From the NCBI GenBank assembly GCA_963816185.1, contig CAWFJJ010000025.1, positions 128,001 to 192,000 on the forward strand: DNA of 64,000 nucleotides, written 5' to 3'. The translations under genes and the position numbers were made by a program. Source of the stretch: Thermoanaerobaculia bacterium (lineage in GTDB: Bacteria; Acidobacteriota; Thermoanaerobaculia; UBA5066). The notes below the pieces were generated by a model, which worked only from the letters and a program-made list of their open reading frames with translations, was not told the DNA's origin and ran no database searches. Positions 8,180-50,950 of this stretch are shown one piece after another; position 1 is the stretch's first letter; every line of letters begins with the position of its first letter.

Positions 8180-10318
8180 ATGGCGAAGTCCAGCCCGAAA
8201 GTGAAGGAACCCGCAGGACGTGCGGCCGAGCTGAGAGACGAGATCCGCCGGCACGACCGCCTCTACCACACGGAGGCCCGGCCCGAGATCACGGACGCCG
8301 AGTATGACGCCCTCGTACGCGAGCTGAAGTCGCTGGAGGCGGAGCATCCCGACCTCGTCACGCCCGACTCGCCGACGCAGCGCGTAGGCGGGGCGCCCGT
8401 CTCCGAGCTGCCGAGCGTGCGGCACGAGATCCCGCTCCTCTCGCTCGACAACGCTTACAACCGCGAAGAGCTGGAGGCGTGGCTGAAGCGCGTGACGGAC
8501 CGCCTCGGCCGCATGCCGGCGCTCGTCGCCGAGCTGAAGATCGACGGCCTGTCGGTTTCGCTCGTGTACGAGAACGGAGTCCTCGCGCGCGCCGCGACGC
8601 GCGGCGACGGGACGACGGGCGAGGACGTCACGCCAAACGTGAGGACCATTCACGCTATCCCATTGAAGATTGCAGCCGCCGCTGACGCGGCGGCAGAGAA
8701 GATTTCTGTGAAAGAGAAGAAGGGCGCGGCGGCCGGCGGAGTGCGCGTCGGGCAATTACCATTCGAAGCAAGAGGACCTGACGGCCTGCTCCGCATCCCA
8801 CGGCTCTTAGAGGTCCGCGGCGAGGTCTATTTCCCGAAGAAGTCCTTCATGGCGCTCAACGCCGCCCGTGAGGAGGCCGGGTTGCCGTTGTTTGCGAACC
8901 CGCGCAATGCGGCCGCGGGTTCCCTGCGTCTCCTCGATGCGCGCGTCACGGCTCAACGGAAGCTCTCGGCGTTCCTCTATTCGATCGCGCGCTGGGAGGG
9001 AGAACGGACGCCTGCGAGCCAGAGCGAGGCTCTTTCCATCCTCGAAGAAATCTCCCTTCCCGTTAACCCCCATCACACGGTCGTCTCGGACGTGGAAGGG
9101 GTCCTCGCCTTCCTCGACGAATGGCGCACGAAGCGCCACGACCTGCCCTTCGAGACGGACGGCGTCGTCCTGAAGGTGGATGCCCTGTCCGACCAGAGAC
9201 GCCTCGGCCAGACTGCGAAGGCCCCGCGCTGGGCGCTCGCGTACAAGTTCCCGCCCGAGGAAGCCACGACGGTCGTGACGAACATCCGCGTCCAGGTGGG
9301 CCGCACCGGCGTCCTCACGCCCGTCGCGGAGTTCACACCCGTGCTCCTCGCAGGCACTGTCGTCAAGCGCGCCACGCTCCACAATCACATGGATCTCGCG
9401 CGCAAGGACGTACGCGTGGGCGACACGGTGGCGGTCGAGAAGGCGGGCGACGTGATCCCGCAGGTGACGCGCGTCCTTCTCGAGAAGCGGCCGAAGGGCG
9501 CGCGGGCCTTCGCGATGCCGGAGCGCTGTCCGGCTTGCGGCGAGAAGGTGGTCCGGCAGGACGGCGAAGTGGCGGTTCGCTGCGTGAACGCGTCCTGCCC
9601 GGCGCAGGTCCAGGAGTCCATCCGGCACTTCGTTTCGCGGCGCGCTCTCGACATCGAGGGCCTCGGAGACGAGCGCATCGACCAGCTTCTCGGCGCGGGA
9701 CTCCTCGCGGACGTCACGTCTCTCTACGCGCTCACGAAAGATAAGCTCGCGCCGCTCGAGCGCTGGGGCGAGAAGTCGGCTTCGAACGTGATCGCGGAGA
9801 TCGAACGGTCGAAGGACGCCGGCCTTTCCCGTCTCCTTTACGGCCTCGGGATCCGGCAGGTCGGAGAGAAGACGGCGAAGGTCCTCGCCCGCCGCTTCCC
9901 CTCGATGGAAGCCCTCCAGGGAGCGGACGAGGACGCGCTGACGTCCGTGCCCGAGATCGGTCCCGAGACGGCGCGCGGGATCCTCGACTGGTTCCAACGC
10001 CCCCCGAATCGCGTTCTCCTTTCGAAACTCGAGGCGGCGGGAATCCGTATGAACGAGAGCCCGGCTCCGTCCGCGGCCGGCGGATCCCTGTCCGGAGGCG
10101 TTTTCGTTCTCACGGGGACTTTGCCGAGGCGTTCTCGCGAGGAAGCGACCGCGGCGATCGAATCGGCCGGTGGAAAGGTGAGTGGAAGCGTGTCGAAGAA
10201 GACGACGGCGGTCATCGCCGGCGAGGAGCCGGGAAGCAAGCTCGACAAGGCGAAAGCGCTGGGCGTCGCCGTGTGGACCGAGGACGACCTCGACCTCGCG
10301 CTCGGGGCGAACGCTTGA
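8180..10318 (+). CDS. ligA: NAD-dependent DNA ligase
   Basis: ELKIDG adenylation motif, [22 protein letters not shown], Zn finger CPAC..C..C, HhH, C-terminal BRCT. Confidence 0.98.
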
Positions 10319-11829
10319 GCGCGACGGCACCGCTCGTCCTCGTCGTCGACGACGACGCGGGAAGCCGGAAAGCGATGGCCCTGACTCTCCAGACGGACGG
10401 ACACCGCGTGGAGGAGTTCGCGGACGCCGACGCCGCGCTCGAGAGGGCGATCGAGGATCCCTCCGTCGCGCTCGTCGTGACGGACCTCAAGATGCCGGGC
10501 AAGAGCGGGCTCGAGCTCGCGGCGGACCTCGCCACGGCGCGGCCGGACGTGTCGGTCCTGCTCGTGACGGCCCATGGCGACGTCGAGACCCTGCTCTCGG
10601 CGCGCACGCTCGGGACCGTCGATTACGTCGCGAAGCCTCTCGCGAAGGACGATCTGCGCCTGAGGGCGGAGGCCGCGCTCTCCCGCTCGCGTCAGGCAGG
10701 TGAGATCAAGGATCTCCACGAGCGCCTCGACAAGCGCTTCGGCTTCGAGGCGATCCTCGGCATCAGCAAACCGATGGAGGAGCTCTTCGCGCGACTCCGC
10801 GTGGTGGCGCCCGCGAAGACGACCGTCCTCATCGTCGGCGAGTCCGGCACGGGCAAGGAGCTCGTCGCGAACGCTCTCCACCACAACTCGCCGCGCCGCG
10901 GGCGCGCGTTCGTCGCCCTGAACTGCGGGGCCATCCCGCGCGAGATCATCGAATCGGAGCTGTTCGGGCACGAGCGGGGCGCCTTCACCGGCGCGCTCGT
11001 GAAGCGCGTCGGGCGCATCGAGCAGGCGCATGGAGGCACGCTCTTTCTCGACGAGGTCTCCGAGATGCCTCCGGACCTGCAGGTGAAGTTCCTGCGCGTC
11101 CTGGAGGAGAAGCGCGTGACGCCGGTCGGCGGGAACGAGAGCAAGGACGTGGATTTCCGGCTCGTGGCCGCGACGAACCGCGCTCTCGTCGCCGAGATCG
11201 ACGCGGGGCGTTTCCGCCAGGACCTCTACTACCGCCTGTCCGTCGTGACCGTCGAGATCCCGCCGCTGAGAGACCGGCGCGACGACATTCCGCTCCTCGT
11301 CGAGCGCTTCCGGGACGTCTTCGCGAAAGAGCACGGAAAGCCCGTGACGGGCGTGACGCCCGCGGCTCTCTCCGCGCTCGTCGCCTACGACTGGCCGGGC
11401 AACGTCCGGGAGCTCAAGAACGTCCTCGAGAGCGCCATCCTCTTCGCAGCGGGCGGACGCATCGACGTGAACGACCTGCCGGCCGCGGTTCGCGGCCGGC
11501 AGGTCGTGCCGGCCGTCCCGGCTTCCGCCCCCACGAAACCCCGATCGGGGGAATGGCCGGCCGTCCCGCCCGCGACTCCGGCCGCGCCGGCGACGGCGCC
11601 GGGTCCGGAGCAGCCCGTCTCCGTCGCGACGCTCGTGGGCAAGACGATGGCCGAGGTCGAGCGCGAGGCGATCCTCACGGCGCTTCAGGTGTCGGGAGGG
11701 AACCGGAGGCGTGCCGCGGAGGCCCTCGGAATCGGCCTCAGGACGCTCCAGCGAAAGCTGAAGGAGTACCGGGGCGAGCCGCTCGGCGACGACGACGGCG
11801 ACGAGGAAAGCGACGAACCCGGCGACTGA
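10315..11829 (+). CDS. Sigma-54-dependent response regulator (NtrC/AtoC family)
   Basis: Receiver (VVDDD, TDLKMP), AAA+ ([27 protein letters not shown]), Fis-type HTH; TTG start overlaps the ligA stop. Confidence 0.93.
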
Positions 11830-49742: not shown

Positions 49743-50950
49743 CGGCTCGTGTCGCGCTCGTCGGCCCTTTCCCGCCTTGGCGCAGCGGGATCGCCGACCA
49801 GGACGCGCGCCTCCTCGCCGCGATGCGGCGGCTGGGCGTCGACCCGCTCGTCATCGGCTTCTCGCGCATGTATCCGAAGTTCCTCTATCCGGGGACGTCG
49901 GACTATTCGGAGGAAGAGAACAAGAGATTTCTTAGAAGGAGAAGAGAAGGATTCGGACGGTAAGAGGCAGCGCTCCGTCGGGCAGGCCATCGCGGTTCCG
50001 CGGCGAGAAGAAGTCTCTTAGAAGGGAAAATCCTCGACGGTCTGAATCCCTACTCGTTCGTGCGGGCGGCCCGCTTTCTTTCCTTCGAAGAAGTCTCTCT
50101 CGTGATCCTTCCCTGGTGGACGTCCTACTTCGCACCGCACGTGTGTCTGCTTCTGTCCACACTCGGCGCCGAGCGGCCCGCCGCCGTGCGACTCCTCCTC
50201 TGCCACAACGTCTTCGACCACGAGTCGCACCCTCTCAAGGACGCCCTCACACGCGCCGTTTTCCGCAGGGCGGATCGCTTCGCCGTGCAGAACGCGCGCA
50301 GCGCGCGCGAGATCTCCGGCGAGCGCCCGGACGCGCCCGTCGCGCTGGTGCCGCACCCGGCCGAGCCGCGCGCCGTCCTGCCCGACCGAGACGCCGCGCG
50401 TGGCCATCTCGGCCTCCCTTTGGACGCGCCCGTCTTCCTCTTCAGCGGCCTCCTCAGGCCGTACAAGGGCTGGGACGTCCTCCTCGACGCGTTCGCGGCG
50501 CTGAGGAAGGAGGTCCCGTCGGCGCTCCTCGTCTTCGCAGGCGAACCCTGGGGCGAGGCGCGCCGTCTCGAGGCGTGGGCCCCGGCAGGCGTTCGCCTCG
50601 AGCTCCGCTACTTGTCCGAGAAAGACCGCGGGCTGTGGTTCGCGGCCGCGGATGCCGTCGTGTGCCCATACCGGCATGCGACGGGCTCCGGCATCGCGGC
50701 CGACGCCCTCGCGTACGGGCGGCCCGTCATCGGGACGACGGTCGAGGGCCTCTCGGATGTCGTCGAGGATGGGCACAGCGGCCTCCTCGTGCCTCCGGGG
50801 GACGCGCCCGCCCTCGCGTGCGCGATGACGCGCTTCGTGCGCGAGGGACTCGGACCGCGCCTCGCGGCGGGCGCGGCACACCTGAGGGCCTCGTTCGGGC
50901 CCGACGCCCATGCCCGGCGCCTGCTCGCGTTGGGCGGCGTGGCTGTCTGA
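49739..50950 (+). pseudogene. Glycosyltransferase family 4, interrupted by an in-frame TAA (49961) inside an AG-rich insert
   Basis: N-part VGPFPPWRSGIA...YPKFLYPG and C-part LNPYS...RPYKG...PYRHATGSG..GRPVI are in the same frame, separated by the stop. Confidence 0.7.

Follow-up and report, generated by a model that had tools for sequence, protein, structure and literature searches.

A genus-restricted repeat in inward-facing pairs, within and between the genes of soil Acidobacteriota

The stretch of DNA analysed here (the window, 64,000 nucleotides in full) raises the question of why a GC-rich bacterial genome should carry one AT- and purine-rich motif over and over, often inside genes. Dispersed repeats of bacteria are usually ascribed to a transposase, as for REP elements with RAYT and for MITEs, or to DNA uptake, as for DUS and USS. 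In Acidobacteriota, which are abundant in soil and hard to grow, cis-regulatory and chromosome-organising signals are, to our knowledge, almost undescribed. Full-text literature searches on Acidobacteria repeat elements and on the letters of the motif returned primers and STAT sites, with the repeat itself undescribed, and Rfam over the window gave only tRNA and no match for the repeat. What calls for explanation is a long motif kept against strong GC and codon bias, mostly in inward-facing pairs, for which the known engines were not found.

The motif is the 9-mer TTCTTAGAA, the core of a ~29-nt arm made of a purine tract followed by GATTTCTTAGAAGGTGAAGAGGG, with a conserved span of 25–30 nt. 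The core occurs 337 times in the 5.09-Mb, 67% GC genome (G000), whereas the 2520 9-mers of the same composition average 2.2 occurrences (median 1). This enrichment survives a codon-aware null: the called coding sequences hold TTCTTAGAA 134 times, whereas 25 synonymous-codon shuffles gave 2.6 ± 2.0 (at most 7), an excess of about 50-fold, and a 12-mer of the motif 57 times against 0.2 after such shuffling. Within the window, an 18-mer with up to three mismatches matched 5 times, where 0.02 would be expected from 100 shuffles, none of which gave more than 1. Arms called by a position-weight scan of G000, with a score threshold applied, are strand-symmetric (368 plus, 374 minus) and occur about once per 7 kb, although very patchily, with 0 to 30 per 50 kb (variance 37.6 vs. 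mean 7.7).

The repeat is restricted to one genus of soil Acidobacteriota, with some 300 units per genome. The 12-mer has 45–177 copies in each of the 17 genus genomes sampled, 16 in one genome of a sister genus, and 0–4 in the remaining 283 of the class; these counts bear out the lineage specificity first proposed for the motif, and its presence in every sampled genus genome marks it as real rather than an artefact of assembly. Viral contigs yielded 47 single matches, every one in DNA of 23–45% GC, which we read as chance.

The base-frequency profile of the arm is asymmetric, with a purine-rich consensus. The original prediction had described the core as a dyad, and the symmetry TTCT-T-AGAA is indeed present in TTCTTAGAA, as an imperfect 4+4 match only. 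A unit runs from a purine tract through the arm, a spacer and an inverted arm to a pyrimidine tract. Among neighboring arms, a distance of no more than 300 bp separates 218 of 246 "plus then minus" pairs but 5 of 242 in the order "minus then plus," and the 214 apparent singletons have a weak convergent partner (at least 8 bits) downstream in 90 cases and upstream in 3. Pair length has a sharp mode at 83–88 bp and a minimum of 49 bp; the commonest arm-center spacing is ~72 bp, roughly seven helical turns, and pair lengths are phased weakly and off the helical period (R = 0.20 at 9.0 bp; 1% threshold 0.145). Tandem and nested arms also occur. From one unit to the next the spacers, often native coding DNA, are unrelated: in an all-against-all BLAST of the 218, matches were limited to assembly duplicates, kinase paralogs, a few chance short words, and a few spacers that hold another repeat. 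Two other repeat families in G000, with 8 and 39 similar copies, carry arm-like tails. The relevant features of the window are as follows.

8696..8724, plus strand: arm in ligA, scan score 25.2
9029..9057, minus strand: possible partner arm in the LigA coding sequence, scan score 21.3
22160-23044, minus strand: folP, Pterin_bind gene (Pfam)
22545..22573, plus strand: arm in folP with core variant TTCTTCGAA, scan score 21.7
22742..22813: short convergent unit in folP, arms at 22750 (plus) and 22797 (minus), scores 21.4 and 21.5
34380..34472: convergent unit in the intergenic gap separating ftsH from the CstA gene, arms at 34388 (plus) and 34456 (minus), scores 30.6 and 17.5
37071-38396, minus strand: Peptidase_M64 gene (Pfam)
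38433..38513, plus strand: purine-rich patch with one scoring arm at 38493 (plus), score 20.3
42936..43134: unit in the second rsmH paralog, arms at 42944 (plus), 43022 (plus) and 43118 (minus), scores 39.2, 15.0 (weak) and 32.3
45744..45772, plus strand: arm in the PepSY_TM gene (Pfam), score 32.9
49921..50100: unit in the GT4-type glycosyltransferase gene, arms at 49929 (plus), 50015 (plus) and 50084 (minus), scores 36.6, 21.9 and 26.8

All six near-identical copies reported originally are present at their positions. The looser ones at 8697, 22547, 22745, and 43018 were recovered by the scan, while that at 38433 fell below threshold, the scoring arm there being at 38493. Partner arms at 9041, 22797, 34456, 38493, 38830, and 50084 had been overlooked, and with them the convergent-pair rule.

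Individual sites differ in how firmly they form units and in how widely they are shared. The ligA arm at 8696..8724 sits in a ~40-residue insertion of the adenylation domain, where the Pfam DNA_ligase_aden match is split into two stretches; at 337 bp apart, the two ligA arms are widely spaced and may not make a true unit. The Pfam match of folP (residues 22–262) is uninterrupted despite the unit at 22742..22813. The true ftsH stop lies upstream of the unit at 34380..34472, and the copy at 34379, contrary to its first description, is in no gene but between ftsH and the CstA gene. This unit is kept in G011 and G007, is absent in G009, and has another repeat in its place in G017 and G003. The patch at 38433..38513 is located at, or immediately before, the 5′ end of the M64 peptidase gene; of its two sub-patches, both occur in G003 and the second alone in G007 and G011. 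In the rsmH paralog, arm 43022 is an insertion common to G000 and G012 only, and the extra GT4-gene arm at 50015 is found in G000 only. The frame of the GT4 gene is open through the unit in five of five relatives, with a 1-nt break in the purine tract of G000. For the PepSY_TM-gene arm, no partner exceeded the scan threshold and no homologous stretch was recovered among five relatives. Logan contigs from four DNA runs, short and thin, cover some arms and show small purine-tract indels at 38461-38511 and 50013.

The copies had been said to lie mostly inside genes. This describes the window, where 12 of 16 arms are in ligA, folP, the rsmH paralog, the PepSY_TM gene, and the GT4-type gene, but not the genome, where units are enriched between genes. 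Genome-wide, 44% of pairs are intergenic against 12% expected and 94 of 218 (43%) have both arms in one called gene, read in frame, with gene positions taken from a crude codon-usage ORF caller on an assembly with frame breaks and duplicated contigs. In ligA, folP, the rsmH paralog, and the GT4-type gene, residence within the gene is backed by Pfam matches and orthologs; protein kinase genes also carry units. The motif occurs in genes only in frames that remain open, and adds in-frame residues (~40 in LigA, ~7–30 in the RsmH paralog, a loop in the GT4-type enzyme). Open frames through units, synonymous shuffles, and Pfam matches all agree with the coding compatibility proposed at the outset. 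Between genes, 73 of 96 units separate co-directional genes, and convergent-gene gaps are depleted (5 of 96 units vs. 15% of intergenic length). The 83–88 bp size class is mostly intergenic, and units of 78–92 bp often lie 18–50 bp past a stop codon and occupy the whole gap.

Two gene-linked signals were considered and rejected. For a gene-end signal, with the reverse complement reading F-T-F-stop, there was no codon phase around 336 aligned copies, and merely 13 of 166 in-gene copies lay within 15 nt of a stop. Against Shine-Dalgarno or anti-Shine-Dalgarno mimicry, the two arms of a convergent pair could not both stand ahead of a gene, and the arm bears only a loose resemblance to the 16S 3′ end, which is canonical.

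Comparison of relatives indicates how arms arise and persist. In 15 of 15 aligned orthologs of the rsmH paralog the outer arms are conserved, with rare codons. Most of these orthologs keep the arm GAA GAT YTT CTT AGA ARG, AGA being replaced by CGA in two of them and GAA by GGA in one; most keep the second arm, CAC CTT CTA AGA, while the stretch beside the arm varies in length and sequence. Similarly, at the intergenic site G000:C1:135438, both arms are retained in at least a dozen species as the spacer drifts. Together with the synonymous shuffles, these orthologs support the view that arms are held by nucleotide-level selection against the codon bias of the genome, as the original remark on forced rare codons had implied. 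The EDLLRR residues of the rsmH-paralog arm align without an indel to native residues of the canonical RsmH paralog, which argues that this arm was made in place by substitutions and not by insertion. Insertions of single arms and of whole units occur as well, and at some intergenic sites arms were lost or replaced between relatives. One whole unit, at C25:578564, is present in G000 only, the site being empty in 17 of 17 relatives; no clear direct repeat was seen to flank it, although its outer boundaries are indistinct, and no source copy with a similar spacer was present in 28 genus genomes. The suggestion that the patches are scars of a tiny element is therefore right in part: insertions support an element-like origin for some units, whereas the conservation of arms beside diverging spacers, and at least one arm made by substitution, argue against mere scars.

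The explanation that we favor, tentatively and at somewhat less than even confidence, is a sequence-specific recognition site, under selection, that a putative host factor uses in pairs. Each arm would be the recognition site of a trans-acting factor confined to the genus, most likely a DNA-binding protein engaging two inward-facing sites at once. Units would arise by insertion of short DNA with an arm or a whole unit, or by substitutions in native sequence, and once formed the arms would be kept by nucleotide-level selection, essential genes included. We infer that the reader is a protein acting on double-stranded DNA, and likewise infer whatever purpose its binding has. Weak phasing, patchy density, and arm loss or replacement at intergenic sites count against a host factor, and lineage-specific insertion of whole units resembles mobile DNA or recombination import more than a host signal.

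One alternative, which we consider unlikely, is a DNA-uptake or recombination-drive signal: arms would accumulate through preferential uptake and recombination of arm-bearing DNA, with host benefit unnecessary. Known uptake signals are 9–12 nt long, occur about once per 1 kb, and when paired sit in terminators. The repeat is similarly lineage-specific, abundant, and strand-symmetric, its in-gene copies are confined to open frames, and its orthologous sites are conserved, but the arm is 25–30 nt long, occurs only about once per 7 kb, and units are depleted between convergent genes. The presence pattern of G000:C25:5711, which does not track sequence similarity, also speaks for this alternative. 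The competence genes comEC and dprA are present, and also in 10–11 of 14 control genomes, a near-universality that makes their presence say little about uptake; the genus, which is uncultured, is not known to be competent. Treangen et al. (2008, PMC2397512) report that new DUS copies face gaps in relatives, as do new copies here. Inverted DUS pairs are likewise described in that paper and in a preprint (PMC2397512; bioRxiv 10.1101/2025.10.24.684340). However, the pairs reported there are at most 21 nt apart and a single DUS suffices (PMC2397512), whereas the convergent pairing here is near-obligate, leaves at least 49 bp between cores, and would have no role in uptake.

Action in RNA seems to us improbable as well. 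Like REP and Correia elements, units transcribed along with genes would form a long AU-rich stem, steering processing, decay, or operon coupling, and the purine tract would serve as an (ARN)n-type site, of the kind bound by Hfq, whichever of the strands is read. The preference for co-directional gaps and the filling of gaps shortly after stops by the 78–92 bp class would fit, as would single-strand folds, in which the arms are able to pair (mean z −2.5 over 70 units, with DNA energy parameters). The GAUUU stretch and the purine tract presumably match the RNase E site consensus and (ARN)n, respectively. Against this, ~43% of units are inside genes, where the spacer is native coding sequence, and compensatory change between the arms of a unit is lacking: arm-arm identity within one unit equals that across different units (157 units), and there is no excess of Watson-Crick or G-U pairing within over between units (211 units; z −1.4 to +1.8). 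It is the arm sequence, rather than structure, that stays conserved.

Still less probable is that the units are functionless relics of a silent, old MITE-like family, the arms being former terminal inverted repeats around decayed spacers. The inverted-repeat architecture (218 convergent against 5 divergent pairs), the sharp and mostly intergenic size class, the intergenic enrichment, presence or absence at orthologous sites, tandem and nested arms, and the arm-like tails of the other repeat families are all consistent with such relics. However, neutral arms would decay like spacers, whereas the AT-rich rare codons of the arms are kept genus-wide, one arm arose without insertion, and copies are not homologous along their whole length. 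Recent copying of units would have been detected, as it was in the other families, whose similar copies number 8 and 39; for the G000-only unit, 28 genus genomes held no relative with a similar spacer. An engine was also sought: RAYT (PF01797) has no match in G000 and was matched in 2 of the 18 genomes of the genus, compared with 8 of 12 from other genera (including the unpublished G019), and no transposase was seen, by eye from translations, among the ORFs enclosed by 16 arm pairs 300–5000 bp apart in G000 (6 called ORFs in total, within 3 of the pairs).

That the arms are sites of a recombinase inverting or excising the segment between them, in the manner of invertons or programmed excision, is highly improbable: one-consensus inverted repeats do flank short segments and serine recombinase genes exist in G000 (from a resolvase search that says little), but spacer orientation is identical in 15 rsmH-paralog orthologs and at three intergenic sites, inversion or loss of the conserved native spacer residues would wreck the gene, no strand-changing joints were seen at arm pairs in the thinly covering Logan contigs of four runs, and the sole apparent inversion (120 bp, G017 vs. 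G003) is a different repeat family inserted in both orientations.

The paired recognition site of a host factor can be taken further, to a genus-own, chromosome-wide cis-code of ~300 convergent pairs, placed even in the coding sequences of essential genes, two arms being clamped by a putative genus-specific protein. We regard this extension as possible but doubtful; if true, the pairs would be DNA micro-loops or domain markers of a kind new to bacteria, or else an uptake signal that is both long and paired, the first such outside Proteobacteria. In practice, a 29-nt site in ~700 copies offers a bait for finding its reader and a metagenome marker for the genus. It also matters for annotation, as purine tracts coincide with one of two assembly frame breaks and units add protein loops.

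The repeat, with no matching enzyme or function on record, has its closest counterparts among the known kinds of dispersed repeat. The REP, BIME, and REPIN sequences of Enterobacteria and Pseudomonas, which go with RAYT transposases, resemble it in their hundreds of copies, inverted doublets of ~100 bp, place in intra-operon gaps, and proposed binding of host proteins. They are extragenic, however, with a 20–40 bp palindrome per unit, whereas the arms here are not palindromes alone, each unit has a spacer of its own, unrelated to the others, 43% of units are within genes, and RAYT is missing from G000 and present in only 2 of 18 genomes of the genus. The DUS of Neisseriaceae and USS of Pasteurellaceae are likewise abundant in one lineage, on both strands, tolerated in open frames, and conserved at orthologous sites; by comparison, the arms here are about 7-fold sparser and longer, are not concentrated in terminators, and are paired, at wider spacing, as a rule. 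The Correia elements of Neisseria and the palindromic elements of Rickettsia, of 85–200 bp, are also small, with long inverted ends, and co-transcribed with genes, and the in-frame residence of the Rickettsia type in housekeeping proteins recalls that seen here in LigA, the RsmH paralog, and the GT4-type enzyme. Those elements are homologous over their full length and arise by insertion, whereas only the arms are shared among the units described here, at least one of them born by substitution.

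The original prediction placed six near-identical and five looser copies of an AT/purine-rich motif in the window; all six of the former lie where they were reported, as do four of the five looser ones, and the fifth, the patch at 38433, fell below the threshold of the scan. An 18-mer search allowing at most three mismatches gave 5 matches in the window, against 0.02 expected. The window is C25:128001-192000 of its source genome (G000; 30 contigs, numbered C1, C5 and so on, 5.09 Mb, ~67% GC), and in the whole of G000 the 9-mer core TTCTTAGAA occurs 337 times, a count that, like the other motif counts, is slightly inflated because of duplicated contigs; same-composition 9-mers (n = 2520) have a median of 1. 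Enrichment persisted over a codon-aware null, with 134 cores inside genes vs. 2.6 ± 2.0 in 25 synonymous-codon shuffles, and inside called genes a relaxed 11-mer (321 vs. 39) and a 12-mer (57 vs. 0.2) behaved similarly. Among relatives, compared as one genome per species, a 13-mer had 22-110 copies in each of the 18 genus genomes and was absent from all 12 genomes that represent other genera of the order (including the unpublished G019 and G024). In a class-wide set of 301 genomes, the 12-mer had 45-177 copies in 17/17 genus genomes, 16 in one genome of the sister genus (G169), and 0-4 in the remaining 283.

In an alignment of all copies, conservation runs from roughly -8 to +20 relative to the core, an arm in which a purine-rich run is followed by GATTTCTTAGAAGGTGAAGAGGG and then by ordinary GC-rich DNA. 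With a threshold of 18 bits, a weight-matrix scan of G000 recovered 742 arms, vs. 121 in reversed sequence, balanced between strands (368 plus, 374 minus). The arms are paired: 218 of 246 plus-then-minus neighbours are no more than 300 bp apart, and only 5 of 242 minus-then-plus neighbours are so close. Weak convergent partners are present downstream of 90 of the 214 apparent singletons and upstream of 3, and G000 therefore holds ~300 such units. Pair lengths, measured between the start of one core and the end of the other, peak sharply at 83-88 bp, never fall below 49 bp and extend up to 300 bp; additional arms are tandem or nested (++-, +--, ++--, +----). Flanking the arms are A-rich purine (left) and T-rich pyrimidine (right) tracts, found within 60 bp of an arm in 323 of 922 cases in G000 and nearly all strand-matched. 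Arm density per 50-kb window of G000 is very uneven (0 to 30), C24 and C28 being rich in arms and C29 nearly empty, and correlates weakly with GC (r = 0.24).

Location was assessed against a crude gene set from a home-made codon-usage ORF caller (4126 genes, 84% coding). By this measure 96 of 218 pairs (44%) lie between genes, vs. 12% of random spans, 94 (43%) have both arms in one gene, vs. 74%, and 27 straddle a gene end. Intergenic units separate co-directional (73), divergent (18) or convergent (5) neighbours. In the 78-92 bp class, 32 of 51 units are intergenic, and these units often lie 18-50 bp past a stop codon, occupying the entire gap. Arms inside genes use just two open frames per orientation, the sense copies translating as ..DFLEGE.. 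or ..(F/L)LRR... Relevant loci, within and between genes, are as follows.

ligA, folP, second rsmH paralog, PepSY_TM gene and GT4-type gene: Pfam-confirmed genes of the window with arms inside them
34388/34456: unit in the window, flanked by ftsH and the CstA gene
42567-43619, minus strand: window copy of rsmH, 351 aa
G000:C5:101572-102324: canonical copy of rsmH, 325 aa

The adenylation domain of LigA carries a ~40-residue insertion between two Pfam stretches (window 8690-8810), which contains the 8704 arm. A family of Ser/Thr kinase paralogs (C24:602000-621000, C23, C28:51683 and C8:329058 of G000) has an arm pair at a fixed kinase-domain position, in 102-bp units translating as ..DFLEGEE.. 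and ..FSFEEI...

The genus has two rsmH (mraW) genes, and the window copy shares 75-82% identity within the genus and 42-47% with the single rsmH of other genera. In most of 15 orthologs of this paralog GAA GAT YTT CTT AGA ARG is kept (CGA replaces AGA in two and GGA replaces GAA in one), as is the CAC CTT CTA AGA arm; both retain AT-ending and AGA/AGG codons otherwise avoided in the genome, and next to the second arm both length and sequence are free to vary. Aligned with the canonical RsmH paralog of G000, the first arm (EDLLRR) matches up with native residues, with no indel, and was made by substitution; at the second, ~7 residues are added relative to that paralog. Extra arms at 43022 (common to G000 and G012) and at 50015 in the GT4-type gene (G000 only) arrived with 50-80 bp of new DNA. 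The GT4-type gene is a single open frame across the unit in 5/5 relatives (514-801 residues), but in G000 a 1-nt difference within the purine tract splits it (window about 49900-49935). This is one of two or more 1-nt frame breaks in the assembly. Another, near the C-terminal end of ftsH (minus strand, window about 34850-34880), reflects one base missing in G000 and present in G011, G007 and other relatives, and means either an assembly error or a pseudogene. Small contigs also repeat stretches of larger contigs at 94-100% identity (C27:5571-6170 vs. C25:161726-162325; C14 vs. C24; C11 vs. C1), owing either to redundancy of the assembly or to strain variants within the MAG.

Between genes, units come and go. 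The two arms at G000:C1:135438 persist in a dozen or more species, with a drifting spacer between them, and the left half is absent in several. Relatives at G000:C25:5711 show no unit, one arm, almost abutting arms or a full unit, independently of sequence similarity. A ~125-bp unit at G000:C25:578564 occurs in G000 alone, the flanking genes abutting or nearly so in 17/17 relatives, and no similar spacer was found in any unit of the genus genomes searched. Unconstrained loops have almost nothing in common from one species to another, so copies that left a shared source long ago would be unrecognisable; recent copying would have been detected, since two other repeat families yielded 8 and 39 similar copies. 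The first, ~105 bp with two hairpins (G000:C25:342585-342687 and seven further places, outside the window; also L032 and L040), has 8 copies of at least 80 bp in G000 with 85-96% identity to a copy from G017; it lies in the ftsH-CstA gap in G017 and is inverted there in G003, and its tail resembles an arm. The second, ~128 bp with a long hairpin (L140:2944-3071; G000:C1:136881-137008), has 39 copies of at least 90 bp in G000 and is also numerous in G007 and G012; a few copies lie inside arm pairs (e.g., C14:41639-41890).

Spacers are unrelated among units, save in the kinase paralogs, the duplicated contigs and a few that hold another repeat. Arm identity is no higher within a unit than between units (157 units), and Watson-Crick or G-U complementarity shows no excess (211 units, z -1.4 to +1.8), so it is the arm sequence itself that is kept, not a hairpin; single strands of units can fold (mean z -2.5) because both arms match one consensus. 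Selection or drive acts on the arm as a sequence-specific signal, which is used as convergent pairs at a preferred spacing. We tentatively favour a putative genus-confined trans-acting reader, most likely a DNA-binding protein holding two sites at once: each arm would be recognised by this factor, which would engage two convergent arms simultaneously.

Several known identities were rejected. The arms are not palindromes and many units lie within genes, against REP/RAYT; PF01797 (RAYT) was not found in G000 or in 16/18 genus genomes. Copies lack the whole-length homology of a classical MITE, and no transposase was seen by eye among ORF translations between 16 distant arm pairs. Units are depleted between convergent genes, against a terminator family; aligned orthologs and thin contig data showed no sign of inversion of the segment between the arms. 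Gene-end or ribosome-binding artefacts and a viral origin were likewise rejected for the arms, and full-text literature searches found no description of the repeat.

An RNA role resembling the one of REP and Correia hairpins would fit the operon gaps and purine tracts, but is unlikely given units within genes and arms that do not covary. A DNA-uptake signal of DUS/USS type is comparably doubtful. DUS/USS are described as lineage-specific, frame-constrained in genes, preserved at orthologous positions, paired, and acquired as insertions opposite gaps (PMC2397512; bioRxiv 10.1101/2025.10.24.684340), and the arms share each of these traits; unlike the arms, however, DUS/USS are short, dense, effective as a single copy and tightly paired in terminators. 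Functionless MITE relics are improbable, as they leave arm conservation unexplained. In population behaviour, DUS/USS are the closest analogue of the arms.
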